A stretch of DNA of 53,432 bases from an uncultured Clostridia bacterium (lineage in GTDB: Bacteria; Bacillota; Clostridia; Christensenellales; CAG-138), in NCBI GenBank assembly GCA_937894955.1, contig CALAXO010000070.1:1-53432 (forward strand). Reading direction: 5' to 3'. This document shows positions 22,765 to 41,321 of the stretch, piece after piece; position 1 is the first letter of the stretch, and each line of letters begins with the position of its first letter. The translations under genes were made by a program, and so were the position numbers. Under the pieces are notes generated by a model. It saw only the letters and a list, made by a program, of their open reading frames with translations. It was not told the origin of the DNA and made no database searches.

Positions 22765-22804
22765 GCCGAATTTGACCCGCGGGGAACAAGAGCGGGGGAA
22801 GAAA

Positions 22805-22835: not shown

Positions 22836-22857
22836 CAATTCATCAGTCACAAAACAA

Positions 22858-22886: not shown

Positions 22887-23061
22887 GTGAACGAAGATGC
22901 AGATATACTGTCACATAATCTTCACAAATCAACAAAAAAGTATTGCTGTTTGACCCTTTGGGGATTGCTTTTCGGCGGAACGCGCCGAGGTGAATTCATC
23001 ATTTTAATCCTTTGGAGCAGGGGAATGCCCTGCCGAGATTTTATGCAAAGGAGAACATACC

Positions 23062-23334
23062 ATGCACGATAACACGGGAAACGCACGGAGAGTGTTTAAC
23101 AAGTTTTGCGGCGCACTTGACAAATGCGGCATTTCCTGTCAAAGGGATGACGAAGAATTGAGCGTTTCATGCCGATTCAAGGGCAATGATCTTGTGATTC
23201 CCGCAACAATTGATTTTTTAAAAGACTTTGAGCTTATGGTGATCCACTCGCAATTGCCCTGCATTGTTCCCGTTGAAAGAAGGGTTGAGTTCGCGCCGGC
23301 TGTTGCGGCTGTGAACTCATTGTTTGGAAGTTGA
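23062..23334 (+). CDS. Small YbjN-like (chaperone-fold-like) protein, possibly truncated by an in-frame TGA
   Basis: AAAGGAG RBS, 90 aa. Resemblance to YbjN is by eye only (CRFKGNDLVIPATIDF...LMVIHSQLP...ERRVEFAPAVAAVN). An in-frame 26-codon ORF follows directly after the TGA. Confidence 0.4.
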   Translation: MHDNTGNARRVFNKFCGALDKCGISCQRDDEELSVSCRFKGNDLVIPATIDFLKDFELMVIHSQLPCIVPVERRVEFAPAVAAVNSLFGS

Positions 23335-23472
23335 ATGGTTAACGAAAAACTGTTTGCTCTTGCCAAGGGCATTGTGAATATTACAGCGTTTGTCAAATTG
23401 CCGGATGAAGAGTAACAAATAAAACAAGTTGTGCAGCGCCTGGCGCTGCGAAGGAAGACTTTCGGAGGAAGA

Positions 23473-26088
23473 ATGATAAAAAGGATAGTATCATTATTGA
23501 CGGCGGCTTTACTGATCTGCGGCATTTTATTCGGCGTCGCAGCATCGGTCGTTTTTGCGGAGTCGCTTTATGTTCGAAAAATCGTTTCGGTTGTTTACGA
23601 TGATTCCGCAAGCATGGGCGGTCAAGACTGGGCTTATGCAAATTATGCCATGCAGACCTTCTGCGGCATGATGAACAGCGAGGATCAGCTTTTTATCACA
23701 TATATGAGCGGGGTTCTGTACAACCCGCTGTACAAGCCCTACAGTGCGGATCTGTCCTCCGGAGGCATTCAGGGCTCCGTGGATTCCATACGCAGCCACC
23801 AGGACAGCGGCTCTACCCCGTATGATGCCGTTGACACAGCGATGCACAAGCTCGAAAAAACGAAGGATTCGAATCCGAACACACAGTATTGGCTTGTTAT
23901 TATTACCGATGGCTATTTTAACGAGATGAACGGCATGTATGAAGACCGGGCAGTGAATATGCTTGATACCAATCTTGCCGATTTTACAAAGAAGACAATG
24001 CCGAACGGCACGAACCCGCAGGTGACTTTTCTCAGCATCGGTGACGGAGCTGTTTCTCCGACAGAAAAGACGGACAAGGGCATATTTACATATCACGCAG
24101 AGGATGCGGAAGGAATAATGACGACTATGTCCGCAATGGCGGACAGAATCTCCGGAAGAACACGTCTTTCAAGCAGTGATATAACTCAAGTTAACGATAC
24201 AACCATTCGGGTTGAGTCTGCAATACCGCTGCTGAACATTGTTATGCTCCTTCAACAGACGGATGCAAAGCCTGTAAAAACCGTGATGAACAACGAGCTG
24301 TCCGCCGACGTGAGCAGGGAAGTTCGAGTCAGTTTCCCGGACTGCAGCAACCTTCACGGCGGAATTTTCATGATCGGAGATTCAGCCAAAACGATGCCTG
24401 CCGGCACATATGAAATTACATTTGATGAAAAGGTGAATGTTGACGATCTGGTTATTCTGTTCGAACCCGCACTTGAAATTCGAATGAGAGTTTTTGTGAA
24501 CGGACGTGAGATTACGGATTACAGCGAGCTTGACAATCTTTCGGAGGGCGATGAAATAACGATTTCGTGCAGGATCTATGAAATGGGAACGGATAACGAG
24601 ATCGATTCATCACTGCTGCCGCCGGACACAAGCTACCGAATCAGCATTGCCGAAGACGGCACGGTGAAGGCGGAGTCGACCGACTCGACCATGACTATTG
24701 ACAAATACAAACTCGGAAAAAGTGACACCGAACTCACAGCAACGATAAGCATTCCCGGATTTAACCCGATAAAGTTGAACTTTGAATTTACGCCTGCCGA
24801 ACCGGACGGAAGCTTTACTCTGTCTGCAGATTACGGCGGAACGGCTCAAAGCGTGAGACTGAACGAGATTTTCAGCAATAAGGATCTGTCAATTGTGTTT
24901 ACAATTTACGAGGACGGTGTTCAGGTCACCGATCCTGGGAGGATTAAAAAGCTGAATCCGGTTATTGACGTTTCGCCCGCCGGAAACAGCGGCACGATTG
25001 AGTACCTTAACGACGGAAGAATCAAATTCACGCCGAATAATGCAAATGTTGAGCCAAATGCGGAAGGAAGCATGGATGTTACGGTAACCTGCACACTGAA
25101 AACAGGTGCGGCAGCAGCCCACATGTATACGGTTGTGATTTCGGATTATAAGGTAATTGCGATTCCGCAAACGGAAAGCATTATTAAAACAGAATTCTTC
25201 GGAAATCAGATCGGCGCATCATTTTATATCACCAAGGACGGACAGCGCCTTCCGAAAACCGAAGTTGACGGCAAATGCAGCGTGACTGTGGATAAGCGGT
25301 TCAAATCGATTGAGCTTTCCGTTTCAACGGAAGCGGATGGAACAATTGTCTGCATTCCGACGGAGAATGCAGCTATGGATATAGGCTTTGCCGATTGGTG
25401 GATTTACTGGGTAAAATACCTGTTCAAACTTCCGCACGGAACGATGAATATTCACCTTTCATCTCCGTGGGGAGAAGCGGATTCCGAAATTGCAATAAAG
25501 GATGCTCCGCTGAAGTTCCGCCTGCTGAATGTTTATTTGCCGCTTCTTATTGAAACTGCGGCCGCAGCGACACTGACGACGTGGGTTATCCTTGTCGCGA
25601 CAAAACCGCGTTTCGCAAAGAAAGCACAGCTGTATGTGGGGGATGTGATTTACATAAACAGCAGCGGCTCCCACCGAATTCAAAATTTTAAATCGATAAA
25701 ATTGAAAAAGTACAATAGATTAAAGTACTTGTGGAAATTCAAGAGGAAAGCCGAGGTTATTAAGGTTTTGGGTGTGGCATTCCGCGCGGATTACGGAAAC
25801 ATAATAAGCTGCGAAATGATGATGCCGTGGTACAAATGCGAAATCAAGCCGGAAGACTGCACTGTTCAGGTTCCTGATGCGGATTCATTAAAAGACTACA
25901 TTGCAAGATATCACTATATTATGGTGGAGGAATTGTCGATGTTGACAAAGGTGATGGACCCGAGTGCAAAACGATTGGCAGCATCAGTCAACAGGTATCC
26001 AAGGTACTTGGTGATTCCGACGCAGGTAAGCAAGATTGACGAAGTCGAAAGAATAGTTAAGGCAAAGATAATTCTTTATACAAATTAA
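23473..26088 (+). CDS. Membrane-anchored von Willebrand factor A (vWA) domain protein
   Basis: GGAGG RBS and N-terminal signal/anchor (IVSLLTAALLICGILFGVAASVVFA). MIDAS DxSxS (VVYDDSASMGG), a GSTPY Thr and WLVIITDGYF. A long beta-rich region, one late TM (LLIETAAAATLTTWVILVATKP) and a tail of about 170 aa. Confidence 0.85.
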   Translation: MIKRIVSLLTAALLICGILFGVAASVVFAESLYVRKIVSVVYDDSASMGGQDWAYANYAMQTFCGMMNSEDQLFITYMSGVLYNPLYKPYSADLSSGGIQGSVDSIRSHQDSGSTPYDAVDTAMHKLEKTKDSNPNTQYWLVIITDGYFNEMNGMYEDRAVNMLDTNLADFTKKTMPNGTNPQVTFLSIGDGAVSPTEKTDKGIFTYHAEDAEGIMTTMSAMADRISGRTRLSSSDITQVNDTTIRVESAIPLLNIVMLLQQTDAKPVKTVMNNELSADVSREVRVSFPDCSNLHGGIFMIGDSAKTMPAGTYEITFDEKVNVDDLVILFEPALEIRMRVFVNGREITDYSELDNLSEGDEITISCRIYEMGTDNEIDSSLLPPDTSYRISIAEDGTVKAESTDSTMTIDKYKLGKSDTELTATISIPGFNPIKLNFEFTPAEPDGSFTLSADYGGTAQSVRLNEIFSNKDLSIVFTIYEDGVQVTDPGRIKKLNPVIDVSPAGNSGTIEYLNDGRIKFTPNNANVEPNAEGSMDVTVTCTLKTGAAAAHMYTVVISDYKVIAIPQTESIIKTEFFGNQIGASFYITKDGQRLPKTEVDGKCSVTVDKRFKSIELSVSTEADGTIVCIPTENAAMDIGFADWWIYWVKYLFKLPHGTMNIHLSSPWGEADSEIAIKDAPLKFRLLNVYLPLLIETAAAATLTTWVILVATKPRFAKKAQLYVGDVIYINSSGSHRIQNFKSIKLKKYNRLKYLWKFKRKAEVIKVLGVAFRADYGNIISCEMMMPWYKCEIKPEDCTVQVPDADSLKDYIARYHYIMVEELSMLTKVMDPSAKRLAASVNRYPRYLVIPTQVSKIDEVERIVKAKIILYTN

Positions 26089-26104
26089 ACCGGGAGGAAA
26101 CAAA

Positions 26105-29100
26105 ATGGAACAACAATCTCTGCTGATAGGCCTTGGCGGAACGGGAAGCCGTGTCGTCAACAATGTTACAAAGCTGCTCACAAAGAACGGAAAAATGTTC
26201 AATGATAATTTGGGACGGATCTGCTGCGCGGTGCTTGATTCGGACAAAAACGACTATGAGCTCATAACGAAAAGCGGAACGCAAATCCCTGTTTTTCCGA
26301 TCAGCAAACCGCAGAAAATTAAACAGTATTTTGCTCAGTACAGTAATCGAAAGATTGCTGAGTGGAGTCCGGATTCACCCACATTCAGAGAGCAAAGCAT
26401 GCTTGACGGCTGCTCCGAAGTGCGTGTAAAATCGCGAATTGCATTTTTCGATTACCTTGAAACCAACATGAACGGAGAACTGGGTGAACTTATCAACCGA
26501 GTGTTGAAAAATAACATGAATACTGTCATCAGGATCATGATAGTATCCTCACTTTCCGGTGGGACCGGCTCCGGTATGTTTATTCAAACCGCATTATGGC
26601 TTCGCAAACATCTTGCGCAGAGCAATGTGGTCATCCGCGGCATTTTCCTGCTTCCCGACATTTTTATTGATACGGTAAAACATATTCGGGAAACATCAGC
26701 CACAAGGATCAGGCATTATGCAAACGCGTACGCAGCGATACGGGAGCTGAATGCTATAACCAGGATAAAGGGAAATCTTCCGATAGCTTTAAATGAGAAA
26801 ATCGAGTTGGAGGGGCTTTTCGACAGCGAGAGTGATGCAAACAGAGGTAAACCTGTCTTTGATTATTGCTTCTTTATTGACAGCAGGAACGCCAAAGGTG
26901 TAGGTGCAAGCGATATTGCCGAATACGAGCAAATGGTAGCTCAACTTGTATACATGCAGCTTTATTCGCCAATGGCAGGGAACATGTATACTGAAGAAGA
27001 CAATTCTTTCTCTGCGTTCAATGAAAATCCCGAGCCGCTGTTTGGCGCATGCGGCTCTGCAAAGGCGGAATACCCGGTTGACAGTGTGAAAACTTTTTGC
27101 GCAATTCGCGCAGCGCAGGATTCCATCAAAAACGGATGGAACAGGATCGACAGCGAGATTGCCGCAAAAAGAGATGAGATCAGGGCAAGAGAAAGGGACG
27201 GAATATATCAGGCTGAAAACTTTGATCCGCGTGCCGAGTATATAAAACTCTTCGATGAAGCGACATCAAGGCGTGCGGAAGAATACGGAAAAGACAGATT
27301 TTTCTTGAACGTTGGACGAGATGTAAAAAATGAAACCAAACAAACCCGACCGGACGGAAAGGTAATTGTTCAGTATTCCGATAAGGTTGATGATTTCCTT
27401 AAGAAACTAAAAAATGACAAAATTGCGGAAGCTGTGACGGAACACAATGGCTTAGAGCCGTTTAAGCGTGATGTAAATGCTTTTGTGAGCGAAGATCATG
27501 ACGAATCTCAACTTGAAGAACTTATTACATTGGACGAAGACGGTATGCGCGAGGCAGTCGATATCTTCGAGGACAAGGTTAATGAATATGCGGAAAGCAT
27601 TGTAAATGCAGCGTTCCCGCTGAGCATGGGTGATGTGAATTCCGGCAACGCTTGTTCCATATTCGGCCTTGCAACAAAGCTGAACGATGAAGGAAAGCGT
27701 GTTTTTATTCACCCGGTTGCGTTGAGATACATCCTCTGCCGAATTGTTGAAAAAATGAGGAACGAAATAAAGGCAACACCTCTTGAAACGCAAAGGATCG
27801 ATGCTGATACGGGCGGGGAACCCGGAACAATGCTTGATAACAGGAGGACCCCCCACAAGACGGAAACAACGCCCGCGGAATTGCTGAACAGCAAGACGCG
27901 GTTTCAGCGGCCGGCGCGATTCCTTGACATGTATGAAAAGCAATATGCTGAGTTTATTAATACAAAGATTGAACTTTGTAAAAAATACGAAACGGAGCTT
28001 CTTAAAGTACGCGTATATGAAAAGCTGATAGAGCGTGTGAATGCACTGCTGACTCAACTCGAAGCCTTTTTCAAAAGGCTGCCGGATATTCAGGAAAAGC
28101 TCTACGATGAACTGGATAACAATATAAAAGCAACGAGCGGAACTATCGGAAACACGTATTATGTTTTCAGCAGCGCAAGGGACAAAGAATCAATTTACAA
28201 AGAGCTCGACCTGACTGCGGACAGAGCGGACGAAATAAGCCGAAGCGTGATCGAAACAGCTTATGGAAGACTTTGTGCGGAGCAGCGTCCGTCCGTGTCG
28301 GAGAATAAACCATATGCAAATCGAGGCATCGCTGAGAAGTTTATGATGGATTCGGTAAGAACTTTCCGAAAAAGAATTGACAGCGATCCGAACAATCGAG
28401 AGATAGTCAATATGGACATCTATACTGCAATAAGCAAACAATGGGATGCAGAGAATGCTGCGCATACGGATGCAGAGCAGATTGAACGTGAGTCGCTGAG
28501 GAGTGTGAACTTCGAAGAAGGTGAAGAGTCAAATCGCTTCGACAGAACGTTGGCAAGCAGGCAGGCTTTCAAGCAGTGTACGGATAAGTTATATGCAATG
28601 GCTGCGCCGATGCTTATCAGCGACATTGAGCCTGCGGATATTAATGACGGTACAATAACAACGAGAACAAACACTTTCTGGGGATTTAATCCGATAGTGT
28701 CAGAGCGGTATTCGGAAATTGGGGCAACCTTGGGCATCAATGCCGGAACCGAGCAGAATGACGCATATCCGATAAACGAGCTGCATTGCTACAGAGCGGT
28801 CTATGGTCTTGAAGCGAAATACATTCCGAAGTTAAATGAGATTAACGGAGGAGTTTACTACGAAAGCTACAAGAATATAATCACCAAAATGGTGCGCCGA
28901 GCGGCAGGCGGTGAAGAAGAAAACGCATATGTGTCAAGCCCGCATCTTGATAAGAGGTGGCATCGCATTTTGCCTTACGTTACTCCGGAAAAGAATGCTG
29001 AAAGCAAAGAAAGATTCTTCCGCGGCGTGTGGCTTGCGCTTGCATACGGAAAGATCAGGGTGAATGCGGACGGCAACTTCTGTTTGCGGCATCGCGTAGA

Positions 29101-29584
29101 CAACGGCCGGCGTATGAGCATTGATGAGGATGTCGTGATAATGCATGGAGGACGCGGAGTCGACAGAAAAGCGATTTACAGGCTGATCGCCGCATTGAAT
29201 GCTGATTTGTACTTCAAAGATATCGTGGTTCCGGAGCTTGAAGGGAAGTATGTTGCGGATGTCAACGGTAAGGACAGCTATGAAGACACAACGGTATTCA
29301 AAGCACTGAAAAATAACGATTGCGGGCTTAACCCGGTGGATACAGTGCTGCTGTATTACAACGGCCTGAACAGAGATTTTGATATTGCAGCTTCTATGGT
29401 CGGAGCGATCGATCGGATAGCTGAAGAGATCGGATCAAGGTTCGGCTTAGACACTGATGCGAAACGTGCTGAAAAAACAAAGTACATGATTTGCAAAGCG
29501 TTCTACGATGCGGCCACGTCTGACAAAGAAAAAGACAACTTGTTCAGAGAGTGGAAAGAAAAATTTGCGGAACTCGGTCTGTAA
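26105..29584 (+). CDS. Giant tubulin/FtsZ-superfamily GTPase-like protein (FtsZ-like-1 / Pfam Tubulin_2 type) with a ~750-aa C-terminal extension
   Basis: GGGAGG RBS 17 nt after the vWA stop. N-terminal LLIGLGGTGSRVVNNV (T1-like loop) and IMIVSSLSGGTGSGMFIQTALWL (tubulin signature GGTGSG). No TM segments. Confidence 0.8.
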   Translation: MEQQSLLIGLGGTGSRVVNNVTKLLTKNGKMFNDNLGRICCAVLDSDKNDYELITKSGTQIPVFPISKPQKIKQYFAQYSNRKIAEWSPDSPTFREQSMLDGCSEVRVKSRIAFFDYLETNMNGELGELINRVLKNNMNTVIRIMIVSSLSGGTGSGMFIQTALWLRKHLAQSNVVIRGIFLLPDIFIDTVKHIRETSATRIRHYANAYAAIRELNAITRIKGNLPIALNEKIELEGLFDSESDANRGKPVFDYCFFIDSRNAKGVGASDIAEYEQMVAQLVYMQLYSPMAGNMYTEEDNSFSAFNENPEPLFGACGSAKAEYPVDSVKTFCAIRAAQDSIKNGWNRIDSEIAAKRDEIRARERDGIYQAENFDPRAEYIKLFDEATSRRAEEYGKDRFFLNVGRDVKNETKQTRPDGKVIVQYSDKVDDFLKKLKNDKIAEAVTEHNGLEPFKRDVNAFVSEDHDESQLEELITLDEDGMREAVDIFEDKVNEYAESIVNAAFPLSMGDVNSGNACSIFGLATKLNDEGKRVFIHPVALRYILCRIVEKMRNEIKATPLETQRIDADTGGEPGTMLDNRRTPHKTETTPAELLNSKTRFQRPARFLDMYEKQYAEFINTKIELCKKYETELLKVRVYEKLIERVNALLTQLEAFFKRLPDIQEKLYDELDNNIKATSGTIGNTYYVFSSARDKESIYKELDLTADRADEISRSVIETAYGRLCAEQRPSVSENKPYANRGIAEKFMMDSVRTFRKRIDSDPNNREIVNMDIYTAISKQWDAENAAHTDAEQIERESLRSVNFEEGEESNRFDRTLASRQAFKQCTDKLYAMAAPMLISDIEPADINDGTITTRTNTFWGFNPIVSERYSEIGATLGINAGTEQNDAYPINELHCYRAVYGLEAKYIPKLNEINGGVYYESYKNIITKMVRRAAGGEEENAYVSSPHLDKRWHRILPYVTPEKNAESKERFFRGVWLALAYGKIRVNADGNFCLRHRVDNGRRMSIDEDVVIMHGGRGVDRKAIYRLIAALNADLYFKDIVVPELEGKYVADVNGKDSYEDTTVFKALKNNDCGLNPVDTVLLYYNGLNRDFDIAASMVGAIDRIAEEIGSRFGLDTDAKRAEKTKYMICKAFYDAATSDKEKDNLFREWKEKFAELGL

Positions 29585-29615
29585 CGGTCGAACAGCAACT
29601 CAACAGCGGTAAAAC

Positions 29616-29645
29616 TCCCGGCGGCGCATTAGGTGCCGCCGGGGA
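29616..29645 (+). other. GC-rich intercistronic hairpin (attenuator or processing/stability element?)
   Basis: CCCGGCGGC / GCCGCCGGG forms a 9-bp perfect stem (extendable) in the 84-nt gap between the tubulin-like gene and the next gene. No U-tract follows. Confidence 0.4.
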
Positions 29646-29668
29646 ATTGTGATTAAGGGAACTTAGCT

Positions 29669-31960: not shown

Positions 31961-32799
31961 ACTTGCTCATAAGCATGCTGAAAATTGTTTTTGCCTTTGC
32001 AACAGTGTTCCTTGCAGCACTGCCGTTTGTTTTCGAGTACCACACGTACTTAAAAGATAAGGAAAAGAAAACGGCAAACAGGCGTTTCCGCATTATGTGC
32101 TTCACAATGATTTATGCGGCTGCGTTGACGCTTGTGCTTTGTGCTTTGCGTGATGTTATTACGGTCGTAGGCGGGTTGAGCGCAATTTCATGGTTGGCCG
32201 CCAAACTTGCATTGCCGGTGAGAGCGGCGTTCTTTTCAGATGTTGTTGCTGCGCTGTTAGTTAACTTCGCTATTGGATTTTTATTTAGATTACTGCTCAG
32301 GTTTGTGCGGATTGGGATGGGCAAGAGGAGCCTTAGTGAAGGCGAGAAAACAGGCGGCGCTTTCAGCTTCGCACAAAAAGTTGAAATCAAGGTAATAAAG
32401 CTTTTCAGGAAGGATGTCTGGGCGTCAGCTGCAAGCATTTTAAAAAGCCTAAGCATATTTTTATCAGCAGCATATGCTTTTTTTCAATTGATTGCTCTGT
32501 TTGGAGCAGACTGGGTTCCGTTTGATTTCCTTTCGCTTCTGTTCGATGCGGGAGCCAAGTATCCGGTGATTGCATTGCTTATGCTTTGGGAAAGCTTCTT
32601 TTTCCTTGACGGGATAAATGAGGACATCGATAAATGTCCTGAACCGGATCGATCGGAATATGAAAAATCTGATGAAGGTGAAACTGATATTGAAATGATG
32701 GACGAAGCGATTCGCAATGAGTTTGGAGCTTTTTATGCGTGTGATGTTGATGTGACTCTGTCGATTGATGATAGTGAGCAGGCAGATGATGCAAAGTGA
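31957..32799 (+). CDS. Polytopic membrane protein with acidic C-terminal tail (hypothetical)
   Basis: ATGA start/stop overlap with the preceding gene and a strong AAAGGAGG RBS. About 5-6 hydrophobic helices. Tail is EPDRSEYEKSDEGETDIEMMDE. Confidence 0.7.
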   Translation: MNLLISMLKIVFAFATVFLAALPFVFEYHTYLKDKEKKTANRRFRIMCFTMIYAAALTLVLCALRDVITVVGGLSAISWLAAKLALPVRAAFFSDVVAALLVNFAIGFLFRLLLRFVRIGMGKRSLSEGEKTGGAFSFAQKVEIKVIKLFRKDVWASAASILKSLSIFLSAAYAFFQLIALFGADWVPFDFLSLLFDAGAKYPVIALLMLWESFFFLDGINEDIDKCPEPDRSEYEKSDEGETDIEMMDEAIRNEFGAFYACDVDVTLSIDDSEQADDAK

Positions 32800-32836
32800 A
32801 GAAAAAGTATCAAACGCGAGAAAGGAAAATGATCTT

Positions 32837-35800
32837 ATGGAAAAACAAGCAACTATACAGAGATTTGATAAAAATAAAGTTGCGGATTTAATAATTGAAG
32901 CTGTCGAGCATAATTTCGGCAATTCCGAGCGTAAAAACAAAACATATCGAAATTGTATAGAAAGATTGGCAGAGTGCAGCAAAAGTGCAATAATAAACGG
33001 CAACATGTTTTCCGCATTTTCAGAATACTTCATTCGGTACTTGTTCATAGTAGCTGCAAGAGGGGATAATATCATTTTTATATGCAATACCGATGCCGAG
33101 ATAGAACTTACATATGATTTTCTTGTTCGGAAATTTTCGGAAATAACAAGTTTGCGTTGCAATGACAACACAGGTGAAATTAACCTTGATGATCCGATAT
33201 GGAAAATGATAAAGATAAAAGGCAGCGGAGATAATTCGGAAGAGGCTTCGGTAGATGAAAAAAGTATTCTTGTTACTTCATTGAGGTACCTTTCATCCTC
33301 ACGCTTCGAGAACGACCATAAAAGGTTCATTCACCTTATTGACACGGTTGTGTTTATTGACACGCTTGAAACCATAAACAAGTATAATCGTCAGATGACA
33401 ATGTTCAGTACAAGAGTTAAGCATATTGCCGAAACAAATGAATGCCTTGCCAGGAACGGAGGCAGGAACGAAGGGTTTCGTCTGAGATACATGGCACGTC
33501 CGATAAAGTATATTTGCTTTGATGATTCGAGGACACCCGGACTGGACAAGGTCCTTAAAAACCTTACGGCGGAGGAGTTTGAGTCTCTGGATGCAATGCA
33601 GTATAATCCGAACGCTGTCGTTAGGTGTTACAATTACGATGGATGCAAGGATATAGGCGGAAGAGTTGTTGTTCCGCAGTTTGTCAATACAAATGAAGAA
33701 TTGGGCCCGATGATGAATATCGCATTGATGTGTCTGAAGAAGGGAGCAAAATCCGTTGCGGTGTTTGCAGATGAAGACATACCATATGAAAACATTAAAG
33801 AGTCAATTGCAGCAAATGCGGGAGACATGAAAATCGGGGAGAAGCAGTTCAGGCTTAACAGTGCAGCGTGCGATGCAAGAGATTATTCCGTAATCATTGC
33901 AATGGACAGCGAAGAGAATCTTCCGAGGACATTAAGAAAGTATATATCATTGACGGCTTCTGAAAAAACGCTGATAATTATATTTTCAAAGCCGTACATG
34001 CTGCGTGATTTTTACTATGCAAATATCGATGAAATCTGGAGCAGGATTCAACTTGCGAGGATTCCGGTTGAAACCGGAACAAAAAAGGATTTTGCGCAGA
34101 AATTGCTTATAAGAGCGAGCTCGGGTGGAATGATTGTGGATGAAATATTCCGCTCGGCGTTGAATGTCAACACGAATGACTACAGAGAAATGGTGAATAG
34201 GCAGGATGTCGTCTCCATTCTTGCTGATGTGCTGGATATCTACGGCGTGTTGAACGTGGACGAAAAAGCAGACGATGAAAAAGCAAAACTCAGATATAGG
34301 GAACAAGTGCTGAAAATTTTCGAGTTTCGTCACGACTGTGTTTTCGGTTATGACGGTAAGTTCTGTTCAGAAGACAGAGTGTTTTTGCGCACAGAAGGAG
34401 AGCTGTATGATTTGATCAACGGACGGGACATGGCGTCGTTGATTTTGGACGGCAGCGATAAAACGGAAACCATCCCCCTTCCTCGTGCGAGAATAACTCA
34501 GAACTATATTGCAGGCCAAAATCTGGTATTTAATGGCAACATCTACACAATTAGAAACATAGATACCGAAAAGGGAATCCTGTATGTTCGTCTTGCTTTT
34601 GGAGGCATTAACACAGAGGTACATCAATATATCCAAAAAAGGGAATATATCATTCGCCTTGACGGCGAAAGTGCTGCTGTGCTTGCAAATAATGTTATAG
34701 TATTAAATGGCGCTAATAATGGTGAAATTGCCGTTGAGCAAGCATGGATTTCGGTGTTCAGAGCACCTACGGAGGTTATCACACACGGATATTACGAAGT
34801 CAGCTCAAGATCCTTTGCTCAGAACAACAATAATCAAAATTATCACATAATCGACGGTGAAGGTGATTCGCTTGCGCAAAGGTCATACAGACAATACGGG
34901 AAAGTGGTTGAACCGTATTACAAATCAAAGCCTGCCGTTGCCGGTAATAAGGGAGCTTTGATGATGACAATAAGGCTAAAGGGAAAACTTGGAGAAAAGC
35001 CGGAGAGAATTGCGAATCTTGCTGCTGCAATGATCAGGGAAATAATACGTTCAATGTTTCCCTCGGTGGCTGATTCCGTTGCGGTTTGTGTTTCGCAGCA
35101 AACTGAGGCTTGCGATACGGTTGATATCGGAAGACCCAAACTCACCGTGAAAGGAAAAAACAATATTTTTAATAAAGAAGACTTTGAGATTACATTAATT
35201 GAGGACAGCGTCACGGAACTGGGAGTTATATCTGCATTATCTGCATCCGGAGAGGACACACTCAAAACGCTTTTCACTCCGATTGATGAATATCTGGAAT
35301 GGTATTTAAAGTCGGAGAAAAAGAGCGATTACTTATATTACGGAAGCGACAGAGAGCCTGCGGGATTTGATTTTGTGTCCCTCTCAAAGTTGGCTGCATT
35401 GTTAGCAGACAGAGACCATGAACTTCGTTTTGGAAGATTACACGAGCATACAACAAATCGAAATTGTGATTTCTGTGGGAAGAGGGCACGGAAAAATGAA
35501 AGACTGGACAGGCTTTCGGACGGCAGGAAAATTTGTGATCAATGCAAGAAACAAATTGTGACGGGAAATAAAAGAGAACTGAAAGAACATGCGGCTGCTG
35601 CAAAACTCTTTCTTGAAAGTAATTACGGAATAAGAATTGATAATGAGTATGCGGTTTGTTTTGATTCTGCAGAGAGAATTTTACAAGAAATTAAGGCAAA
35701 GGGAGATACGGAATACAAGGGAGATATACCGCTTTTTTCCTTTTTCAAAAAAAAGAGGGTTCACGTTGAAAAAGGGTTGCCCTCAGCGAATCTGACCGAA

Positions 35801-37243
35801 TTATTTGTTCGTGAATTGACACATGCCTGGCAGCGAAAAAACGTTCCGGATCTTTCGGCAGACCTTTCGGAAGGGCTGCTTGCCATTGTGGATATACAGT
35901 ATTTAAGGTTTATCAGCAGGAATGGTTTGGCGGATGAAAGAACAAGCAAGCTGAACAGCTCCTATACGAGAGCAGGCACGGGATATAGGGAGATAGCCGG
36001 TAAACTAAAGGAAAACCCTAAGTACAGAAATAATCCGTTTTTGTATTTACGTGCAGCTGCTTCGGGAGAATTTTCGGATGAGCTTATCTCGGAGAAACCG
36101 CGAAAAAGGGAGATAGGGGAGGATATCTTCGGGAAAAAATATGAGCCAAAAGAATTTGACCGGGTTCTTGAAGGGCCCCCGGAGTATTTTTATCGCAATC
36201 GTTTGACATCCGCTCAGCAAATGCTTTATGATTCTATGATAGAAGCAATTATTCAGCATGCTGAGAGTGTGGATGCAAACGGACTGAAGGAAGGCAGTGT
36301 TTTAACGGTGTCTAAAGCGATAAGCTATGATCGTCCCGATTTGTTTTGGTACAATGACTGCGCATACATAGAAGATAAAATCCGTCTTAAGTACGGTGCC
36401 GGTAGGGAAGAACGGGAAACACTTCAAAAACAGATGGATGAGATGATTTCGAAATTTGTTGAAGACATTGATGACAAGATGAGCGCATATGATGCGGCAA
36501 TACGCATCTACGCAAAAGTTGTTAATGCAACGGATTACGATACCATTGCGCTTAACGAGCAGAAGGCTCAGGGCGGGCCGGCCAAGGATGAAATTGATTA
36601 TCTGAGAACAATATGCGGAGTTTTTATCAGAGGAACAGCAGTTTGCGAAGGATACGCGCGTGCGGTCGCATATTTGATGCAGAAATGCGGCATTGAGTGT
36701 GCCGAAACAGTCGGATATATAACAAAAGCCGACGGCGGGCAAGGAACGCCGCATGCATGGAACATTATTAAAATAGACGGCGAATACTACCATATGGATG
36801 CAACATGGGATGATTATTCCAATACGAATCAAGCGGTCAGGCATGATGAATTCGGATATAATTATTTCTGCATTACAACGGAAGAAATTCAAAGGACACG
36901 AAAAGTTGACCTTTGCCCGACGGATGTTCCGATTTGCTCGGCCGCGGCAGCAAACTACTATCATCATAATGCGTTGATATTAACGAAGTATGATTTGAAT
37001 GAAGTAAAACGGTTTGCCGCCGAGGCAGCGGAGCGGGGGCTTGATAAATTCTCGTTCAAATGCGGAAGTGTTGCGGTTTACAGAGAGGCCATAAACAGAT
37101 TGTTCGTGAGTTCGTCAGAAGGGTTTTCGGCTGTTGGTGCGGCAGCAAAGGCGAACAGAAAGATTGATGGCTCGACATATTCGTATTCATGGAATGCTGA
37201 AATACGCACAATAACCGTGAAATTCAAATTCAAAAACAGTTGA
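32837..37243 (+). CDS. Giant (~1470 aa) protein: unknown N-terminal ~1000 aa, CxxC...CxxC zinc ribbon, degenerate DA1-like metallopeptidase motif, C-terminal transglutaminase-like Cys-His-Asp core
   Basis: GAAAGGAAA RBS before the ATG at 32837 (ORF open from 32765). CDFCGKRARK...CDQCKKQ. RELTHAWQRK...SEGLL (35810-). GTAVCEGYARAVAYLMQ (Cys codon 36644-36646)...GTPHAWNIIKIDGEYYHMDATWDD. Confidence 0.8.
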   Translation: MEKQATIQRFDKNKVADLIIEAVEHNFGNSERKNKTYRNCIERLAECSKSAIINGNMFSAFSEYFIRYLFIVAARGDNIIFICNTDAEIELTYDFLVRKFSEITSLRCNDNTGEINLDDPIWKMIKIKGSGDNSEEASVDEKSILVTSLRYLSSSRFENDHKRFIHLIDTVVFIDTLETINKYNRQMTMFSTRVKHIAETNECLARNGGRNEGFRLRYMARPIKYICFDDSRTPGLDKVLKNLTAEEFESLDAMQYNPNAVVRCYNYDGCKDIGGRVVVPQFVNTNEELGPMMNIALMCLKKGAKSVAVFADEDIPYENIKESIAANAGDMKIGEKQFRLNSAACDARDYSVIIAMDSEENLPRTLRKYISLTASEKTLIIIFSKPYMLRDFYYANIDEIWSRIQLARIPVETGTKKDFAQKLLIRASSGGMIVDEIFRSALNVNTNDYREMVNRQDVVSILADVLDIYGVLNVDEKADDEKAKLRYREQVLKIFEFRHDCVFGYDGKFCSEDRVFLRTEGELYDLINGRDMASLILDGSDKTETIPLPRARITQNYIAGQNLVFNGNIYTIRNIDTEKGILYVRLAFGGINTEVHQYIQKREYIIRLDGESAAVLANNVIVLNGANNGEIAVEQAWISVFRAPTEVITHGYYEVSSRSFAQNNNNQNYHIIDGEGDSLAQRSYRQYGKVVEPYYKSKPAVAGNKGALMMTIRLKGKLGEKPERIANLAAAMIREIIRSMFPSVADSVAVCVSQQTEACDTVDIGRPKLTVKGKNNIFNKEDFEITLIEDSVTELGVISALSASGEDTLKTLFTPIDEYLEWYLKSEKKSDYLYYGSDREPAGFDFVSLSKLAALLADRDHELRFGRLHEHTTNRNCDFCGKRARKNERLDRLSDGRKICDQCKKQIVTGNKRELKEHAAAAKLFLESNYGIRIDNEYAVCFDSAERILQEIKAKGDTEYKGDIPLFSFFKKKRVHVEKGLPSANLTELFVRELTHAWQRKNVPDLSADLSEGLLAIVDIQYLRFISRNGLADERTSKLNSSYTRAGTGYREIAGKLKENPKYRNNPFLYLRAAASGEFSDELISEKPRKREIGEDIFGKKYEPKEFDRVLEGPPEYFYRNRLTSAQQMLYDSMIEAIIQHAESVDANGLKEGSVLTVSKAISYDRPDLFWYNDCAYIEDKIRLKYGAGREERETLQKQMDEMISKFVEDIDDKMSAYDAAIRIYAKVVNATDYDTIALNEQKAQGGPAKDEIDYLRTICGVFIRGTAVCEGYARAVAYLMQKCGIECAETVGYITKADGGQGTPHAWNIIKIDGEYYHMDATWDDYSNTNQAVRHDEFGYNYFCITTEEIQRTRKVDLCPTDVPICSAAAANYYHHNALILTKYDLNEVKRFAAEAAERGLDKFSFKCGSVAVYREAINRLFVSSSEGFSAVGAAAKANRKIDGSTYSYSWNAEIRTITVKFKFKNS

Positions 37244-37272
37244 CTTTTAAAAGATTGAAGGAAGATTAAATC

Positions 37273-37608
37273 ATGAAAAGATTGGTTTCGGTTGCAATTA
37301 TTGTTTTTATGCTTGCGATCTGCGCATGTTCCCCGGCAAAAAGAATTGTTGGGGAGTGGAAAACGCAAAGCACAGTGCTTGGAGTAGTTGTGGAAACGAC
37401 TTATGTCTTTGATGAAGACGGAACAGGCAAGAAATGCGGAGCCGCCGAAATGCCGTTTACATACGAGGTTCAAGACAATAAACTGTTGATAACAACAAGC
37501 ATCATAGGCGTTGATGTTTCAAAAAAAGAGTATTCCATTGATTTTAAAGGGAATACGATTATACTTACAGACGAAAATGAAACCATTGAACTCATAAAGA
37601 AAAAGTGA
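37273..37608 (+). CDS. Small lipoprotein, lipocalin-like (family I recall as DUF5640)
   Basis: GAAGGAAG RBS and lipobox LAICAC. GEWKTQ...YVFDEDGTG...FTYEVQDNKLLIT...YSIDFKGNTIILTD pattern. Confidence 0.65.
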   Translation: MKRLVSVAIIVFMLAICACSPAKRIVGEWKTQSTVLGVVVETTYVFDEDGTGKKCGAAEMPFTYEVQDNKLLITTSIIGVDVSKKEYSIDFKGNTIILTDENETIELIKKK

Positions 37609-37653
37609 TAAAATCAGTCTTGATAATCTCAACATAAAAACATAGGGGGAGTA

Positions 37654-40600
37654 ATGGAAGAACTTGAGTACAGTCCTCTTCTGAGAAGACTTATTGAGAA
37701 AGCAACAGAACTTGACGGCGAACCGAATCATAAGTTAACAGCAGAGGGCTTTATTGCGGCAGTCGTTTGCTATGTCAGAGATGTAAGCGATCCGGACAGC
37801 CAAAGACTGAAGAACATGCTGAAGCTGAAACTTCCGACAGCGATAAGCGATCCAAACGATATTGCAACAGACTTCATTTTGCATGCTACCGGTAAAGCCA
37901 CACCCGAGTCAAGGCGCATTGACGAAAGCTATATTGAAGGATGTCTTAAAAAGGCGCGCTGCATTGCGGCGAGCGAGGGTTCGGGAGAGGTGCATGCGTA
38001 CCGGCTGCTGAAATGTATCCTTGACGAGCCGAACGACTTTATACGTAACTATATAGTTTTCGATGATCTCTCCGAGACGGAGCAGACAGTGCCCGGCATA
38101 CAAACGCTCGAGGATGCTTACACACGAATATTCGGCAGCGACACTGCTGAGGCACAAAAATCATCCCACAGCGGAGAATGCAAGAAGGAGACTCGAAAAG
38201 AGGCACAAAAAAGTATTGCGGATATAATAAAAAGGACTAAGCTGATTCAGGAGTATCTGAGTGAGAGAGTCTTTGGTCAGGATAATGCGGTAAGTGTATT
38301 CGTTGAGGGATATTTTCGCGCGGAGCTTTCGTCACTGACGGACAAAAGCAGCAATCGACCGCGAGCAACCTTTTTGTTTGCCGGCCCTCCGGGAGTTGGC
38401 AAAACCTTCCTTGCAGAAAAGGCTGCTGAAGCTATCAGCTATGTGGAAGAAAAAGAAATTCCGTTTGTTCGATTCGATATGAGTGAATACTGCGACAAAG
38501 AGTCCTCGCTTGAATTCATTGGCAGTGACGGTGTTTACAAGGGTTCAAAATCGGGCAATTTTACGAGCTTTGTGGAAAAGAATCCGCGCTGCTTAATTCT
38601 TTTGGACGAGGTTGAAAAGGCGCACATTTCAATCATCCATTTATTCCTTCAAATTTTAGATGCAGGAAGGATACGAGACAGCAAAACGGACGAAGAAGTA
38701 TCCCTTGCGAGCGCAATAATGGTTTTTACAACCAATGTGGGCAAACAGCTTTACGAAAACTCCGAGTCGATTGATTTTTCGATTTTGCCGCGCAAAGTAA
38801 TTTTAAAGGCATTGCAAAAGGACGTTGAACCAAACACGAAAATGCCGTATTTCCCTGCTGCGATATGCTCAAGATTTGCGTCGGGAAATGTTGTTATGTT
38901 CAACCATATTCGGGCGCACGAACTTTGGGAAATGACAAAACGCGAAGTGTTAAGGAGTGCTGAGTCTTTTACAAAGAGAACCGGAATTGGGGTCTCTGTA
39001 GACGAAAAGGCATACACTGCGCTGCTTTTGGCAGAGGGAGGAGCAGCAGATGCACGTGCAGTAACATCACAGGCAAGGACATTTCTGAATAACGAGATAT
39101 ACGAGATGTTTAGATTGCTGAGCTCTGACCGGAGCAAAACAGGTATCGGAAAGCTCGAGGAAATTTCGATTGAAGTCGATTTGAAGTCCGACAACGATGA
39201 AATTAACTGTTTGTTTAACAATACAGAAATGCAGAACGCTATGATGGTATCAACATCGGACATTATTGAAGAGTGCATGAAACAATCTTCGGGTGTTGTT
39301 TTCTTGGGTGCTGAGGATATAAAAAGTGCAAAAAACATCGTCCACAATAACGAGCTAAGCTTTGCCGTTGTAGATTTATCGTTGAGAGAGCGCGGCAACT
39401 CGGAACTGCTGAATCAGGAAGACATTGAATCGACAGGCAGGGATATTTTTTGGTATCTCCGCGAGAACCTGCCGAACCTGCCGATATATGTCCTTGAAAA
39501 GAACTCCCAAACACTGAGTAAAGAAGAAAAGCGTTCTTTGCTTAAACAGGGAATAAGAGGAATCTTGCGGATTGGTGATGATGCAGCAACCTTTGACAGA
39601 AGCATTGAAGATATATGCGTTCGGGTGCATCAGCAAAAAAGTATGAATATGCTGGCAAGAGCGAACAAACTTATCTCGTTTGAAACATCACAGAAGGTGA
39701 GTGAGGACGGAAAACATGCAGTAATAACCTTGTTTGATTTTGAAACGGAGACCGCAATAGAAGCTGAGGATTCAAGCAATATAATGAGTACTGTTTCAAG
39801 GCCAAACATACGTTTTGATCACGTTATCGGAGCGGAAGATGCAAAGAAAGAACTGAAGTACTTTGTTGAATACCTGAAAAATCCCGGAAAATTTATCGGT
39901 ACAGGAGTAAGTGCACCCAAAGGAGTAATTCTTTACGGCCCTCCGGGCACGGGCAAAACAATGCTTGCAAAGGCAATGGCAGGTGAGTCGAATGCAACAT
40001 TCCTTTTTGCGGAGGGAAATCAGTTTTTAAGCAGATATGTGGGTGGCGGTTCCGAAAAGGTTCACGAGCTTTTTCGGACAGCACGTAAATACGCACCGTC
40101 CATTCTGTTCATCGACGAAATCGATGCTATTGCAAAAGAACGCCGAGGAGAAGATCGAACAGGAGCAGAGGCAACGTTGACGGCGTTCCTTACGGAGATG
40201 GATGGGTTCAATAAGGATCTTTCAAAACCTGTATTTGTTCTTGCGGCAACTAATTTTGATGTTGAATCCGGCGGAAGCAAAAGTCTTGACCCTGCGCTCA
40301 TGCGCAGATTTGACCGAAGAGTTTTAATTGATCTTCCCAACAAAGCAGAACGACGCACATATCTCAAAATGAAAATAAATAAAAACAATGTTTTTAACGT
40401 GTCTGACAGTAAACTTGAAAACATTGTTGTGCGCTCAACCGGCATGAGTCTTGCTGCACTGGAATCAGTTGCGGAACTCGCTTTGAGAATGGCAATTCGT
40501 AACGGAGAAATGAAAGTAACGAATGAAGTTTTCGAAAAGGCGTTTGAAACATTTAACAGCGGGGAATCCCAAAAATGGGATAGTGCAACGCTTGAACGCG

Positions 40601-41124
40601 TAGCTCGACATGAAGCCGGTCATGCGTTTCTTTGCTGGCAAGGCGGTGAAACCCCATCATATGTTACAGTGGTTGCAAGAGCGAATCATGGCGGTTATAT
40701 GCAGCGCGGTGACAACGAGGAAAAACCAATTTACACAAAGCGTGAATTGATTGGAAGGATCCGAACATCTCTTGGCGGGCGTGCGGCTGAGATGGTTTAT
40801 TACGGCAACGAAGACGGAATTTCAACCGGCGCAGCGGGAGACTTGGAAACTGCAACATCCTTGTCAAAGCGCTTGATATGCAGTTACGGCATGGTTGAAG
40901 AGTTCGGCCTTGCAGCAGTAGATCCGAATTCAGCGAGCGGTGAGCTTTCGAACGAGATAAGAAAAAGTATTAACAACATACTGGACATTGAGCTGAAGAA
41001 GGCAATACGAATTATCAGCGAGAATCGGGAAGCCGTAGACAAGCTTGTTGAAAAATTGCTCAAAGATGATTATGCTGCCGGGGACGAAATAGACGCGATT
41101 TTCGCATCGTGCATTAAGGGTTAA
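37654..41124 (+). CDS. TM-less fusion protease: Clp-N-like region + ClpA/B D2-type AAA+ module + receiver-like spacer + FtsH-type AAA+ module + M41 zinc peptidase
   Basis: First module: Walker A FAGPPGVGKT, Walker B LILLDEVEKAH, LLQILDAGRIRD. Second module: LYGPPGTGKTMLAKAMAGE and ILFIDEIDAI. HEAGH at 40609-40623. No hydrophobic N-terminal helices, unlike canonical FtsH. Confidence 0.85.
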   Translation: MEELEYSPLLRRLIEKATELDGEPNHKLTAEGFIAAVVCYVRDVSDPDSQRLKNMLKLKLPTAISDPNDIATDFILHATGKATPESRRIDESYIEGCLKKARCIAASEGSGEVHAYRLLKCILDEPNDFIRNYIVFDDLSETEQTVPGIQTLEDAYTRIFGSDTAEAQKSSHSGECKKETRKEAQKSIADIIKRTKLIQEYLSERVFGQDNAVSVFVEGYFRAELSSLTDKSSNRPRATFLFAGPPGVGKTFLAEKAAEAISYVEEKEIPFVRFDMSEYCDKESSLEFIGSDGVYKGSKSGNFTSFVEKNPRCLILLDEVEKAHISIIHLFLQILDAGRIRDSKTDEEVSLASAIMVFTTNVGKQLYENSESIDFSILPRKVILKALQKDVEPNTKMPYFPAAICSRFASGNVVMFNHIRAHELWEMTKREVLRSAESFTKRTGIGVSVDEKAYTALLLAEGGAADARAVTSQARTFLNNEIYEMFRLLSSDRSKTGIGKLEEISIEVDLKSDNDEINCLFNNTEMQNAMMVSTSDIIEECMKQSSGVVFLGAEDIKSAKNIVHNNELSFAVVDLSLRERGNSELLNQEDIESTGRDIFWYLRENLPNLPIYVLEKNSQTLSKEEKRSLLKQGIRGILRIGDDAATFDRSIEDICVRVHQQKSMNMLARANKLISFETSQKVSEDGKHAVITLFDFETETAIEAEDSSNIMSTVSRPNIRFDHVIGAEDAKKELKYFVEYLKNPGKFIGTGVSAPKGVILYGPPGTGKTMLAKAMAGESNATFLFAEGNQFLSRYVGGGSEKVHELFRTARKYAPSILFIDEIDAIAKERRGEDRTGAEATLTAFLTEMDGFNKDLSKPVFVLAATNFDVESGGSKSLDPALMRRFDRRVLIDLPNKAERRTYLKMKINKNNVFNVSDSKLENIVVRSTGMSLAALESVAELALRMAIRNGEMKVTNEVFEKAFETFNSGESQKWDSATLERVARHEAGHAFLCWQGGETPSYVTVVARANHGGYMQRGDNEEKPIYTKRELIGRIRTSLGGRAAEMVYYGNEDGISTGAAGDLETATSLSKRLICSYGMVEEFGLAAVDPNSASGELSNEIRKSINNILDIELKKAIRIISENREAVDKLVEKLLKDDYAAGDEIDAIFASCIKG

Positions 41125-41134
41125 TATAATAAAC

Positions 41135-41185
41135 ATTGCGAGACAGCCTTGATGAATGCCCGGATGGGACGGGCTGTCTCGCAAT
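41135..41185 (+). terminator. Long perfect hairpin after the protease gene (terminator-like, no T-tract)
   Basis: 14-bp stem ATTGCGAGACAGCC (41135-41148) / GGCTGTCTCGCAAT (41172-41185). Confidence 0.4.
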
Positions 41186-41293
41186 TACGGAGAAAATGCC
41201 ACGCCATGGCAGCAAGGCAATGCTGACAGCAATGAAATGATATTAAACGATGCCGTTTGCTGAACGAATGACAACTGAATGCGGATAATAAAC

Positions 41294-41321
41294 GAAACAG
41301 CCGTCGCACGACGGCTGTTTT
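41294..41321. terminator. Bidirectional rho-independent terminator
   Basis: ACAGCCGTCG (41297-41306) / CGACGGCTGT (41309-41318), with TTTT on plus and a T-rich run on minus. It sits between the island and the tRNA-Arg 3' end. Confidence 0.6.

Follow-up and report, generated by a model that had tools for sequence, protein, structure and literature searches.

A predicted variant of the catalogued vWA–FtsZl1 core nested in a Clp/FtsH protease module of an uncultured Clostridia bacterium

Does a dense run of same-strand genes around a giant relative of tubulin represent one system, and what could such a system do? The question is raised by region 23062–41124 of the 53,432-nt contig CALAXO010000070.1 (assembly GCA_937894955.1) from an uncultured Clostridia bacterium of the CAG-138 lineage; this contig is the whole stretch of DNA that was analysed and is referred to here as the window. 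An initial annotation, made from the sequence alone, had described the region as nine genes around a vWA protein and a tubulin/FtsZ-like GTPase and had put it forward as a candidate membrane-associated conflict or defence system. The region is instead a module A (23431–37608) nested in a second module, B, and the two are often carried together by gut Clostridia. The four-gene core of module A, vWA–FtsZl1–B5–B12, is a real, conserved, mobile accessory module that seems to have been catalogued already. The copy in the window appears, from its sequence, to be a variant of this core, with a transglutaminase (TGase) domain instead of an active zincin, a B12 protein split in two, and a position inside the second accessory module.

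One gene block, two modules

Eight of the nine genes (g1–g8, all on the plus strand) are supported by the list of open reading frames (ORFs) and by homology, while an 84-aa ORF at 22818–23072, considered as a ninth gene, overlaps the promoter-like site, has no homologue, and is discarded. The operon-like spacing described at the outset is confirmed, with intergenic gaps of 16 (g2–g3), 84 (g3–g4), 37 (g5–g6), 29 (g6–g7), and 45 nt (g7–g8) and an ATGA overlap of g4 and g5 at 31957–31960, and the promoter proposed upstream is indeed the top sigma-70-like match in 22600–41500. The features of the cluster are the following:

22858–22886, plus strand: putative sigma-70-like promoter (TTGACA-17-TATACT, a consensus match at 11 of 12 positions)
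23062–23334, plus strand: g1, 90 aa, apparently a decayed, truncated copy of a module B gene (tblastn matches to a 158-aa family)
23431–26088, plus strand: g2, predicted receptor-like vWA protein with two transmembrane (TM) segments (weak Pfam VWA match, hydropathy, conservation of the metal ion-dependent adhesion site, MIDAS)
26105–29584, plus strand: g3, giant FtsZl1 protein (Tubulin_2, PF13809), a predicted GTPase of 1159 aa (Pfam, motifs, AlphaFold2 (AF2), Foldseek)
29669–31960, plus strand: g4, B5-type protein with a predicted cytoplasmic alpha/beta N-domain and long helices with a two-TM hairpin at aa 562–612
31957–32799, plus strand: g5, predicted polytopic membrane domain of ~280 aa with several hydrophobic segments by hydropathy, equivalent to the N-terminal ~280 residues of B12
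32837–37243, plus strand: g6, soluble part of B12, 1468 aa from the ATG at 32837 (Transglut_core, E 1.7e-8; no TM segment)
35465–35545, plus strand: Zn ribbon of g6 (CxxC...CxxC), conserved family-wide
35810–35824, plus strand: degenerate zincin motif of g6, RELTH, compared with HExxH in a distant subgroup
36458–36802, plus strand: TGase-like Cys-His-Asp core of g6 (Pfam PF01841, 35.2 bits versus a cut-off of 23)
37273–37608, plus strand: g7, small DUF5640 lipoprotein (PF18692, E 8e-10; signal and lipobox-like N-terminus)
37654–41124, plus strand: g8, soluble fusion protease of 1156 aa (N-domain, ClpA/B-D2-type AAA+, linker, FtsH-type AAA+, M41)
38356–38796, plus strand: ClpA/B-D2-type AAA+ domain of g8
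39925–40332, plus strand: FtsH-type AAA+ domain of g8
40594–41097, plus strand: M41 metalloprotease domain of g8

Two surveys, each with one genome per species and together covering 160 related loci, place these genes in context. A single-protein query of species-representative genomes returned nothing, and an alignment query recovered relatives; for the tubulin-like protein, the best 80 of 370 relatives were examined, comprising 55 Clostridia loci from metagenome-assembled genomes (MAGs) and 25 Bacillus loci. The second survey, queried with aligned sequences for residues 1–700 of g8 and its relatives, covered 80 (L082–L160 among them) of the 310 Clp/FtsH relatives present among 185,579 species-representative genomes. 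Of the informative Clostridia loci, 49 of 51 have a vWA gene upstream of the tubulin-like one, 34 of 41 have a B5 gene after it, and 34 of 35 have the TGase giant (B12) after B5. All four genes are collinear in 34 Clostridia loci; even a distant subgroup, only 25–28% identical in the tubulin-like protein, carries the same four families. Conserved synteny therefore extends beyond the vWA–tubulin pair, as the initial annotation had expected, but the Clp/FtsH gene and the gene then called YbjN-like belong to a separate module. The proteins are also abundant in gut metagenomes, where their clusters at 90% identity hold 597–1040 member sequences.

The two modules are coupled in part of these loci. 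Within 10 kb of the complete core, 20 of the 34 loci have one or more module B genes, in every case oriented the same way, and the usual linked order consists of two genes of the 158-aa family, then vWA–FtsZl1–B5–B12, sometimes with the lipoprotein, and then a CARF nuclease, a TM protein, and the Clp/FtsH protease. This order was seen where contigs are long enough (L025/L103, L015/L104, L003/L106, L024/L114, L009/L138, and L020/L152), while in L031, L051, and L055 the Clp/FtsH gene is found upstream of the core instead. In the present window, the core lies between the g1 remnant and the Clp/FtsH gene. Moreover, a hand tally of contig names finds a Clp/FtsH gene in at least 18 of the 53 MAGs that bear the core, a lower bound since the tally covers 80 of the 310 Clp/FtsH loci. 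The remaining 14 of the 34 core loci have no module B gene nearby, and 38 of 46 informative Clp/FtsH loci (those with more than 8 kb of upstream sequence) have no core, the TGase giant being present in only 8 of 46; thus, the coupling of A and B is optional.

Such counts could also mean that modules A and B are unrelated accessory cargo gathering at the same variable spots, and this explanation gains from the contigs of several MAGs, on which the modules lie apart, and from a scaffold of Clostridium sp. CAG:138 (L081, FR879697.1) that has the lipoprotein and the Clp/FtsH gene without the core. However, where the two are linked, the core is placed within module B in a constant order, with matching strand and short gaps, and the linkage is kept, rearranged, in lineages that are only 25–33% identical (L031, L051, and L055). 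In addition, 20 of 34 is far above chance for a family found in about 310 of 185,579 species representatives. A mere gathering of cargo is hence regarded as decidedly unlikely, and the persistence of the linkage through rearrangement argues for an optional functional partnership rather than accidental adjacency.

The CAG:138 scaffold also bears on the accessory character of the core. It is 95.4% identical to 37068–49714 and 84% identical to 22049–22788, and it lacks the intervening 22789–37067 (14.3 kb, from g1 to most of g6). Directly after the gene of a TIR-STAND protein, it retains the final ~58 TGase codons along with the genes of the lipoprotein and the Clp/FtsH protease. This gap points to a deletion, or possibly to a metagenomic mis-join, and the core thus seems to be dispensable. 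At the junction, 35 bases do not align.

The reading of the initial annotation, in which the nine ORFs of 23062–41124 would form one obligate, co-evolving defence operon, has become very improbable. The shared strand, the tight spacing, the single strong promoter-like site, and the adjoining TIR-STAND gene all speak for it, but only eight ORFs are supported, the decayed remnant g1 among them, the products of g5 and g6 form a single protein elsewhere, and the lipoprotein accompanies 10 of the 34 complete cores. Furthermore, the Clp/FtsH gene mostly occurs without the core, so that the synteny survey contradicts a single unit, and no known defence system matches.

The core proteins of module A

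The central protein of the core, g3, matches Pfam PF13809 with 164.3 bits versus a cut-off of 27 (E 6e-48), its residues 6–341 corresponding to positions 1–355 of the 356 in the profile. It carries a T1 motif, GLGGTG, at aa 9–14 and a T4 motif of the GGGTG(S/T)G type, GGTGSG, at aa 152–157, and the residues G9, G11, G12, T13, G14, G152, G153, G155, and G157 are invariant in 26 homologues. An AF2 model built on the alignment of these homologues (pLDDT 83.9, pTM 0.66) was compared with the PDB by Foldseek, and the best 50 of 280 matches (E ≤ 0.001) are all CetZ, TubZ, tubulins, BtubAB, or FtsZ, with CetZ2 (4b45) on top at E 7.5e-6, the main hits reaching E 3e-4, and target TM-scores of 0.4–0.5 over ~340 columns. 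The N-terminal domain of g3 is accordingly modelled with a tubulin/FtsZ fold, as had been claimed for the product of this gene. In the model, this domain (aa 1–345) is followed by long helices (603–657 and 659–676) and a C-terminal part consisting largely of alpha-helices, and both the length and the helical architecture agree with the published description of FtsZl1 (~1050–1180 aa). Described in 2010, FtsZl1 diverges more than any other branch of the tubulin/FtsZ superfamily. Its T6–H7 elements were not alignable in Makarova and Koonin (2010; PMC2875224), and a PDB sequence search with the FtsZl1 profile gave nothing meaningful. Full-length homologues of g3 number 663.

Several related loci show unusual copy numbers, with three or four tandem tubulin-like genes in L044, two in L039, and two separate copies of the module in the MAGs JAZPXN01 and CAMAGA01 (L029/L049 and L047/L053). 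A tubulin-like protein of 25% identity over 85% of g3 is also encoded by MT836542.1, an unannotated 9.8-kb contig from human faeces labelled 'Bacteriophage sp.', which is probably a misclassified bacterial fragment. Apart from MT836542.1, searches of plasmid and phage collections yielded nothing but distant homologues on megaplasmids, and the module is not evidently plasmid- or phage-borne.

The vWA protein g2, whose true start is probably the ATG at 23473, has a weak Pfam VWA match (E 8e-4, under the gathering score). Nevertheless, the MIDAS noted initially is well founded, as the residues checked, D57, S59, T129, and D160 (with S61 left aside), are the same in all 78 homologues. A hydropathy scan predicts an anchor at aa 19–37, an ectodomain of ~670 residues with the vWA domain and a beta-rich stalk, a second TM segment at aa 705–723, and a cytoplasmic tail of 160 aa, and for the other proteins, too, the membrane topology agrees with that first described. 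Across the 78 homologues, median identity is 57% in the vWA domain and 29% in the tail.

The B5-type protein g4 has no Pfam match. It begins with the invariant sequence MHTFFINTS, shared as MHT(F/V)FINTS by the distant subgroup, and is homologous to the 670–700-aa gene product of that subgroup (hhalign 99.7%, E 1e-26). In its AF2 model (pLDDT 78.5), helices 540–581 and 590–702 form a very long hairpin that carries the TM hairpin at its tip. A likeness to the ClyA family of alpha-pore-forming toxins (MakA, AhlB, SmhB, and YaxA) is limited to the helical hairpin and non-significant (E 0.17 or worse), and was not used.

The next two genes had been described as separate 280-aa and ~1470-aa proteins. 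Both ORFs exist, yet they correspond to the halves of one protein, B12, which in nearly all relatives is a single ORF of 1730–1775 aa (~1735 aa): residues 1–277 of the homologues align to the g5 frame, and those from 284 onward to the g6 frame, for which the ATG at 32837, behind its own ribosome-binding site, is the most likely start. The single ORF is seen in relatives at 54% identity or less, while the closest relatives of g6, 92% and 65% identical, are likewise split (~1470–1480 aa). Since the split is common to both of these relatives, a sequencing error is ruled out, and g5/g6 would represent an inherited, lineage-specific gene fission at a poorly conserved linker.

The ~1470-aa protein does contain the Zn ribbon and the TGase Cys-His-Asp core that had been noted, whereas the RELTH motif is better understood as a degenerate form of the zincin HExxH. 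The weak DA1-like, DUF6782, and BSP metallopeptidase matches of the B12 homologues, which also include weak ClpX zinc-finger matches, agree with this interpretation. The TGase triad (motifs AVCEGYA, HAWN, and D) is conserved in relatives, and the region matches the solved structure 9crn_A with E 1e-18 for the single sequence and 3e-35 for the profile, the catalytic motifs being aligned; searching the literature for 9CRN had no result. An intact HExxH is confined to the distant subgroup (L050, L051, L054, and L055), where it reads VHELTHFWQ, and three of these four proteins have no TGase domain, while the main subgroup combines RExx(H/Y) with an intact TGase Cys-His-Asp triad, and the B12 of L054 has both the intact HExxH and the triad. 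It thus looks like the peptidase domain of B12 was swapped in evolution from a zincin to a TGase fold with the architecture kept. Because B12 has either the intact HExxH or the TGase triad, its predicted peptidase activity may well be the conserved output of the protein.

The DUF5640 match of g7 bears out the small lipoprotein described first, and lipoproteins of this type being present after B12 in a minority of complete cores (10 of 34, as given above), g7 is an optional appendage of module A.

The Clp/FtsH module and its genomic setting

The description of g8 as a soluble, double-AAA+ M41 protease holds, since Pfam recognises AAA_2 (E 3e-32), AAA (E 2e-47), and Peptidase_M41 (E 2e-30), the two Walker A motifs as well as HEAGH are intact, and a hydropathy scan finds no TM segment. 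The protein resembles FtsH_fam over its C-terminal half (E 7e-101) and the D2 domain of ClpA and ClpB over residues 190–460 (E 4e-41 and 7e-37), but it falls far under the equivalog cut-offs, with 339 bits versus 600 for FtsH_fam (TIGR01241) and 127 versus 1232 for ClpB (TIGR03346). It also differs in having no TM anchor and a domain order not found in FtsH or Clp proteins; g8 is thus a fusion of parts and a member of neither the FtsH nor the ClpB family. Among the PADLOC models, it matches generic AAA+ ones only (IetA, DolB, and TRIP13). Membership in the anti-phage IetAS system (IetA/IteA) was rejected, as the similarity of the FtsH-type AAA+ domain is generic and there is no IetS-like partner.

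In the surveyed loci, module B consists of an optional pair of 300-aa and 92-aa genes, the 158-aa family, usually in two copies, optional nuclease and TM genes, and the Clp/FtsH gene. The optional nuclease combines CARF and PD-(D/E)xK domains (PADLOC CARF4, E 3.5e-32, full length), the optional TM protein before the protease has a weak TrkA_N match, and the protease may be followed by another TM protein and by a RyR-domain protein (E 5.5e-39). Large TM proteins, a metzincin-like protein, and a TerB-like protein are further optional partners. Of 137 flanking genes at the Clp/FtsH loci, 5 belong to TIR_2, more than to any other family, and 3 to ADP-ribosylglycohydrolase, while a type IV secretion system coupling protein and ClpP recur in several loci; neither cyclase nor CRISPR genes are present among the surveyed neighbours of module B. 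The module was not found in the literature searched.

In the present window, the CARF nuclease, TM, and RyR genes of module B are absent. The 90-aa product of g1, labelled YbjN-like at first, has no support for this label from Pfam or PDB sequence searches, and neither has the 158-aa family. It aligns with the first ~90 of the 158 family residues, with in-frame homology continuing past the stop codon to ~23397, so g1 appears to be a decayed remnant of the family that precedes Clp/FtsH genes.

The surroundings of the cluster include these further features:

19900–22764, plus strand: TIR-STAND-TPR gene, a neighbour outside both modules (Pfam TIR_2, E 4e-14; NPHP3_N/NACHT; TPR)
29616–29644, plus strand: GC-rich hairpin with a 12-bp stem and a weak T-tail in the 84-nt gap between g3 and g4 (terminator-like scan)
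41321–41397, minus strand: tRNA-Arg(CCT), just past the downstream end of the cluster (ARAGORN)

The hairpin could be an attenuator of downstream transcription or a stabiliser of the upstream mRNA. A second promoter-like match (11 of 12 positions) is located at 36203–36232, inside the TGase gene and ~1 kb 5' of the lipoprotein and Clp/FtsH genes, and could allow their independent expression.

The cluster had been placed in a tRNA-flanked, AT-rich island. One tRNA, tRNA-Arg, does abut it, but the upstream flank comprises metabolic and transport genes (citrate lyase, fumarase, and a ZIP transporter) before the TIR-NACHT-TPR gene. The GC dip is real as well, but smaller than the 45% versus 60% first estimated, with 44.0% in the cluster and 50–52% in the flanks; GC at third codon positions is 0.42–0.53 and 0.58–0.62, respectively. 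Downstream, tRNA-Arg(CCT) is followed by genes for a PHP-domain protein, an ArsR regulator, and a dockerin-bearing S8 protease, and a tRNA-Leu and a serine recombinase are found ~10 kb farther on. This protease (46614–51242) is a 1542-aa subtilase with Fn3-like, Big_2, and Listeria-Bacteroides repeats and a C-terminal dockerin, and the large serine recombinase (51720–53246, minus strand), beyond tRNA-Leu(CAA), perhaps marks the edge of another mobile element. A megablast search of the cluster against E. coli genomes gave no match.

Known systems and proposed function

The FtsZl1 family and its linkage to vWA genes were defined by Makarova and Koonin (2010; Biol Direct 5:33, PMC2875224), who proposed a role in membrane remodelling. 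Additional file 5 of that work lists vWA–FtsZl1–B5–B12 in 'Bacteroides' capillosus ATCC 29799 (861/1183/658/1435 aa) and in Ruminococcus lactaris ATCC 29176 (732/1136/678/1418 aa). As in those operons, a vWA gene with an intact MIDAS adjoins FtsZl1 in the window, here at the gap of 16 nt, and the order, sizes, Zn ribbon, HExxH of the distant subgroup, and membrane anchor are compatible with the published B5 (~660–890 aa) and B12 (~1420 aa, membrane-associated, with a zincin and a Zn finger), which are BACCAP_04121/04122 and RUMLAC_01526/01527 in the two strains. By this match of descriptions, the B5 and B12 of the window would belong to the published families; an alignment of HExxH-type B12 proteins, used to look for the published genes in the cultured strains, brought up no sequences beyond the same MAGs. 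The window differs from those operons in the degenerate RELTH zincin with a C-terminal TGase-fold Cys-His-Asp domain, in the division of B12 into two genes, and in the appended lipoprotein. Its core is also nested in the Clp/FtsH module, of which Makarova and Koonin (2010) make no mention. Of the two genes that the initial annotation had not counted as part of the known association, the TGase giant would belong to an arrangement listed in 2010.

Two other groups of predicted systems come close. Kaur et al. (2020; eLife 9:e52696, PMC7159879) described Firmicute neighbourhoods of tubulin and vWA genes among the predicted DO-GTPase/GAP1-N2 conflict systems, and read them as nucleoside triphosphate (NTP)-dependent conflict systems with regulated assembly of cytoskeleton-like complexes. 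These share with the window a tubulin-domain protein with a C-terminal coiled coil and a TM protein with an extracellular vWA domain, in a membrane-proximal arrangement. However, membership in the DO-GTPase/GAP1 systems is rejected, because the one or two P-loop DO-GTPases of those systems, often with N-terminal Zn ribbons, have no counterpart here (no Walker A in g1–g7 and no GTPase Pfam match). GAP1, FNIII, and HSP70 were not detected by sequence either, with no Pfam match for g4 or g5 and no GAP1 or FNIII in the cluster proteins at E ≤ 0.01, and the Zn-ribbon/zincin/TGase effector of the window is not in the description of Kaur et al. The MoxR-vWA-TGL operons, predicted as membrane-proximal degradation systems by Zhang and Aravind (2012; Cell Cycle 11:3861, PMC3495828), likewise pair a vWA protein with a multi-TM TGase-like peptidase (YebA/TgpA) and an NTPase. 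In the window, a predicted GTPase of the tubulin superfamily takes the place of the MoxR AAA+ protein as the NTPase, the TGase domain sits at the C-terminus behind ~1000 cytoplasmic residues instead of in the TM7–TM8 loop, and the vWA domain is extracellular; without a MoxR protein, membership is rejected. So is that in the TerY-P systems, as no kinase or phosphatase is present.

Upon the observed gene content, topology, folds, catalytic motifs, synteny, and two-module structure, a mechanism can be proposed, every functional step of which is conjectural. Module A would be a membrane complex composed of an outward vWA/MIDAS receptor, FtsZl1, hairpin-anchored B5, the membrane-anchored B12 peptidase, and an optional lipoprotein. 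The extracellular MIDAS site would bind a ligand or peptide, and the signal would cross the membrane to the cytoplasmic tail of g2, where GTP-dependent assembly of FtsZl1 on the inner face could be nucleated or released, with B5 acting as a membrane adaptor. This assembly may then position or activate the B12 peptidase, through its TGase-fold domain here and through the intact zincin in distant relatives, and the Clp/FtsH unfoldase-protease, if present, might degrade the products or reset the complex.

What this machinery would serve is a matter of graded preference. A signal-to-proteolysis system for conflict (defence) or stress is tentatively favoured over an envelope role, with confidence somewhat short of even. 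The conflict reading draws on module B, with its CARF nuclease and RyR genes and with TIR_2 and ADP-ribosylglycohydrolase nearby, and on the conflict role predicted by Kaur et al. for related tubulin and vWA systems; the accessory status of the cluster draws on its GC content below that of the flanks and on the CAG:138 scaffold without 22789–37067. The defence function first suggested hence remains plausible, and even favoured, although it is drawn from context and the nine-gene unit is not one conserved system.

Several observations weigh against it. The search of PADLOC-DB v2.0.0, dated 2023, and of the named families in NCBIfam returned no system or named family for g1–g7; as far as this search goes, the cluster does not match a named, characterised system, the point that had been singled out for checking. 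The literature searched holds no experimental work on the FtsZl1 family or on these systems, and a fold search with the g4 model against the PDB gave no significant match (best E 0.1). The core flanks vary by locus, as 104 sampled flanking proteins matched 104 different Pfam families, but they are mostly housekeeping, with TIR accounting for 2 of 104 and integrases not ranking among the top families. In 25 loci, one per species representative, from the Bacillus cereus group and a related bacillus, the chromosomal position of the vWA–FtsZl1 pair is fixed. The vWA ectodomain is the best-conserved region of g2 and not the most variable, unlike the expectation for an arms-race sensor. The cores without module B and the Clp/FtsH loci without the core, counted above, count on this side as well.

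The Bacillus loci (L056–L080) show a vWA protein of ~720 aa and a tubulin-like protein of ~1123 aa, 23–24% identical to g2 and g3, adjoining oligopeptide-binding-protein genes and with no B5 or B12 gene after them.

Part of this evidence speaks for a non-conflict apparatus, in which module A would serve membrane remodelling, surface anchoring, or envelope quality control: the vWA domain would bind a conserved self or host ligand, FtsZl1 would be a membrane scaffold, and B12 would process envelope or cytoskeletal proteins. This is the published hypothesis (Makarova and Koonin 2010), and it would account for the strong conservation of the vWA domain with its invariant MIDAS, the conserved context in the 25 Bacillus loci, the housekeeping flanks, the missing PADLOC match, the near absence of the module from the plasmid and phage collections, and core components that are all predicted to be membrane-associated or membrane-proximal. 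Nevertheless, the module is patchy among Clostridia, its insertion sites vary by genome, a 95%-identical relative does without it, and its GC content is below that of the flanks. Some MAGs also carry two copies or tandem tubulin-like genes (L029/L049, L047/L053, L044, and L039), and the module is repeatedly embedded in a second module with CARF nuclease and TIR neighbours, so that the envelope role is considered rather unlikely.

Within the favoured conflict or stress reading, a more specific and quite doubtful version may be formulated, in which module A would be a new class of immune or conflict machine. An integrin-like extracellular vWA receptor would signal inward through the membrane and switch the polymerisation of the tubulin-like GTPase, thereby licensing a membrane-tethered peptidase and, optionally, an AAA+ protease and a CARF nuclease, and the outcome could be cell arrest or death or a block to foreign DNA. 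If true, this would make it the first defence mechanism to rely on a polymer of the tubulin/FtsZ family.

For the biology of the family, these comparisons fix the obligate partners of FtsZl1 in gut Clostridia as the vWA receptor, B5, and the B12 peptidase, and they uncover a recurrent, optional partnership with a widespread Clp/FtsH fusion-protease module with CARF-nuclease and RyR components and, often, neighbouring TIR genes. The apparent swap of the peptidase from a zincin to a TGase fold, with the architecture kept, marks proteolysis as the output to be tested. Since two strains in culture are listed with the catalogued arrangement, namely Pseudoflavonifractor ('Bacteroides') capillosus ATCC 29799 and [Ruminococcus] lactaris ATCC 29176, the role of FtsZl1 is directly testable.

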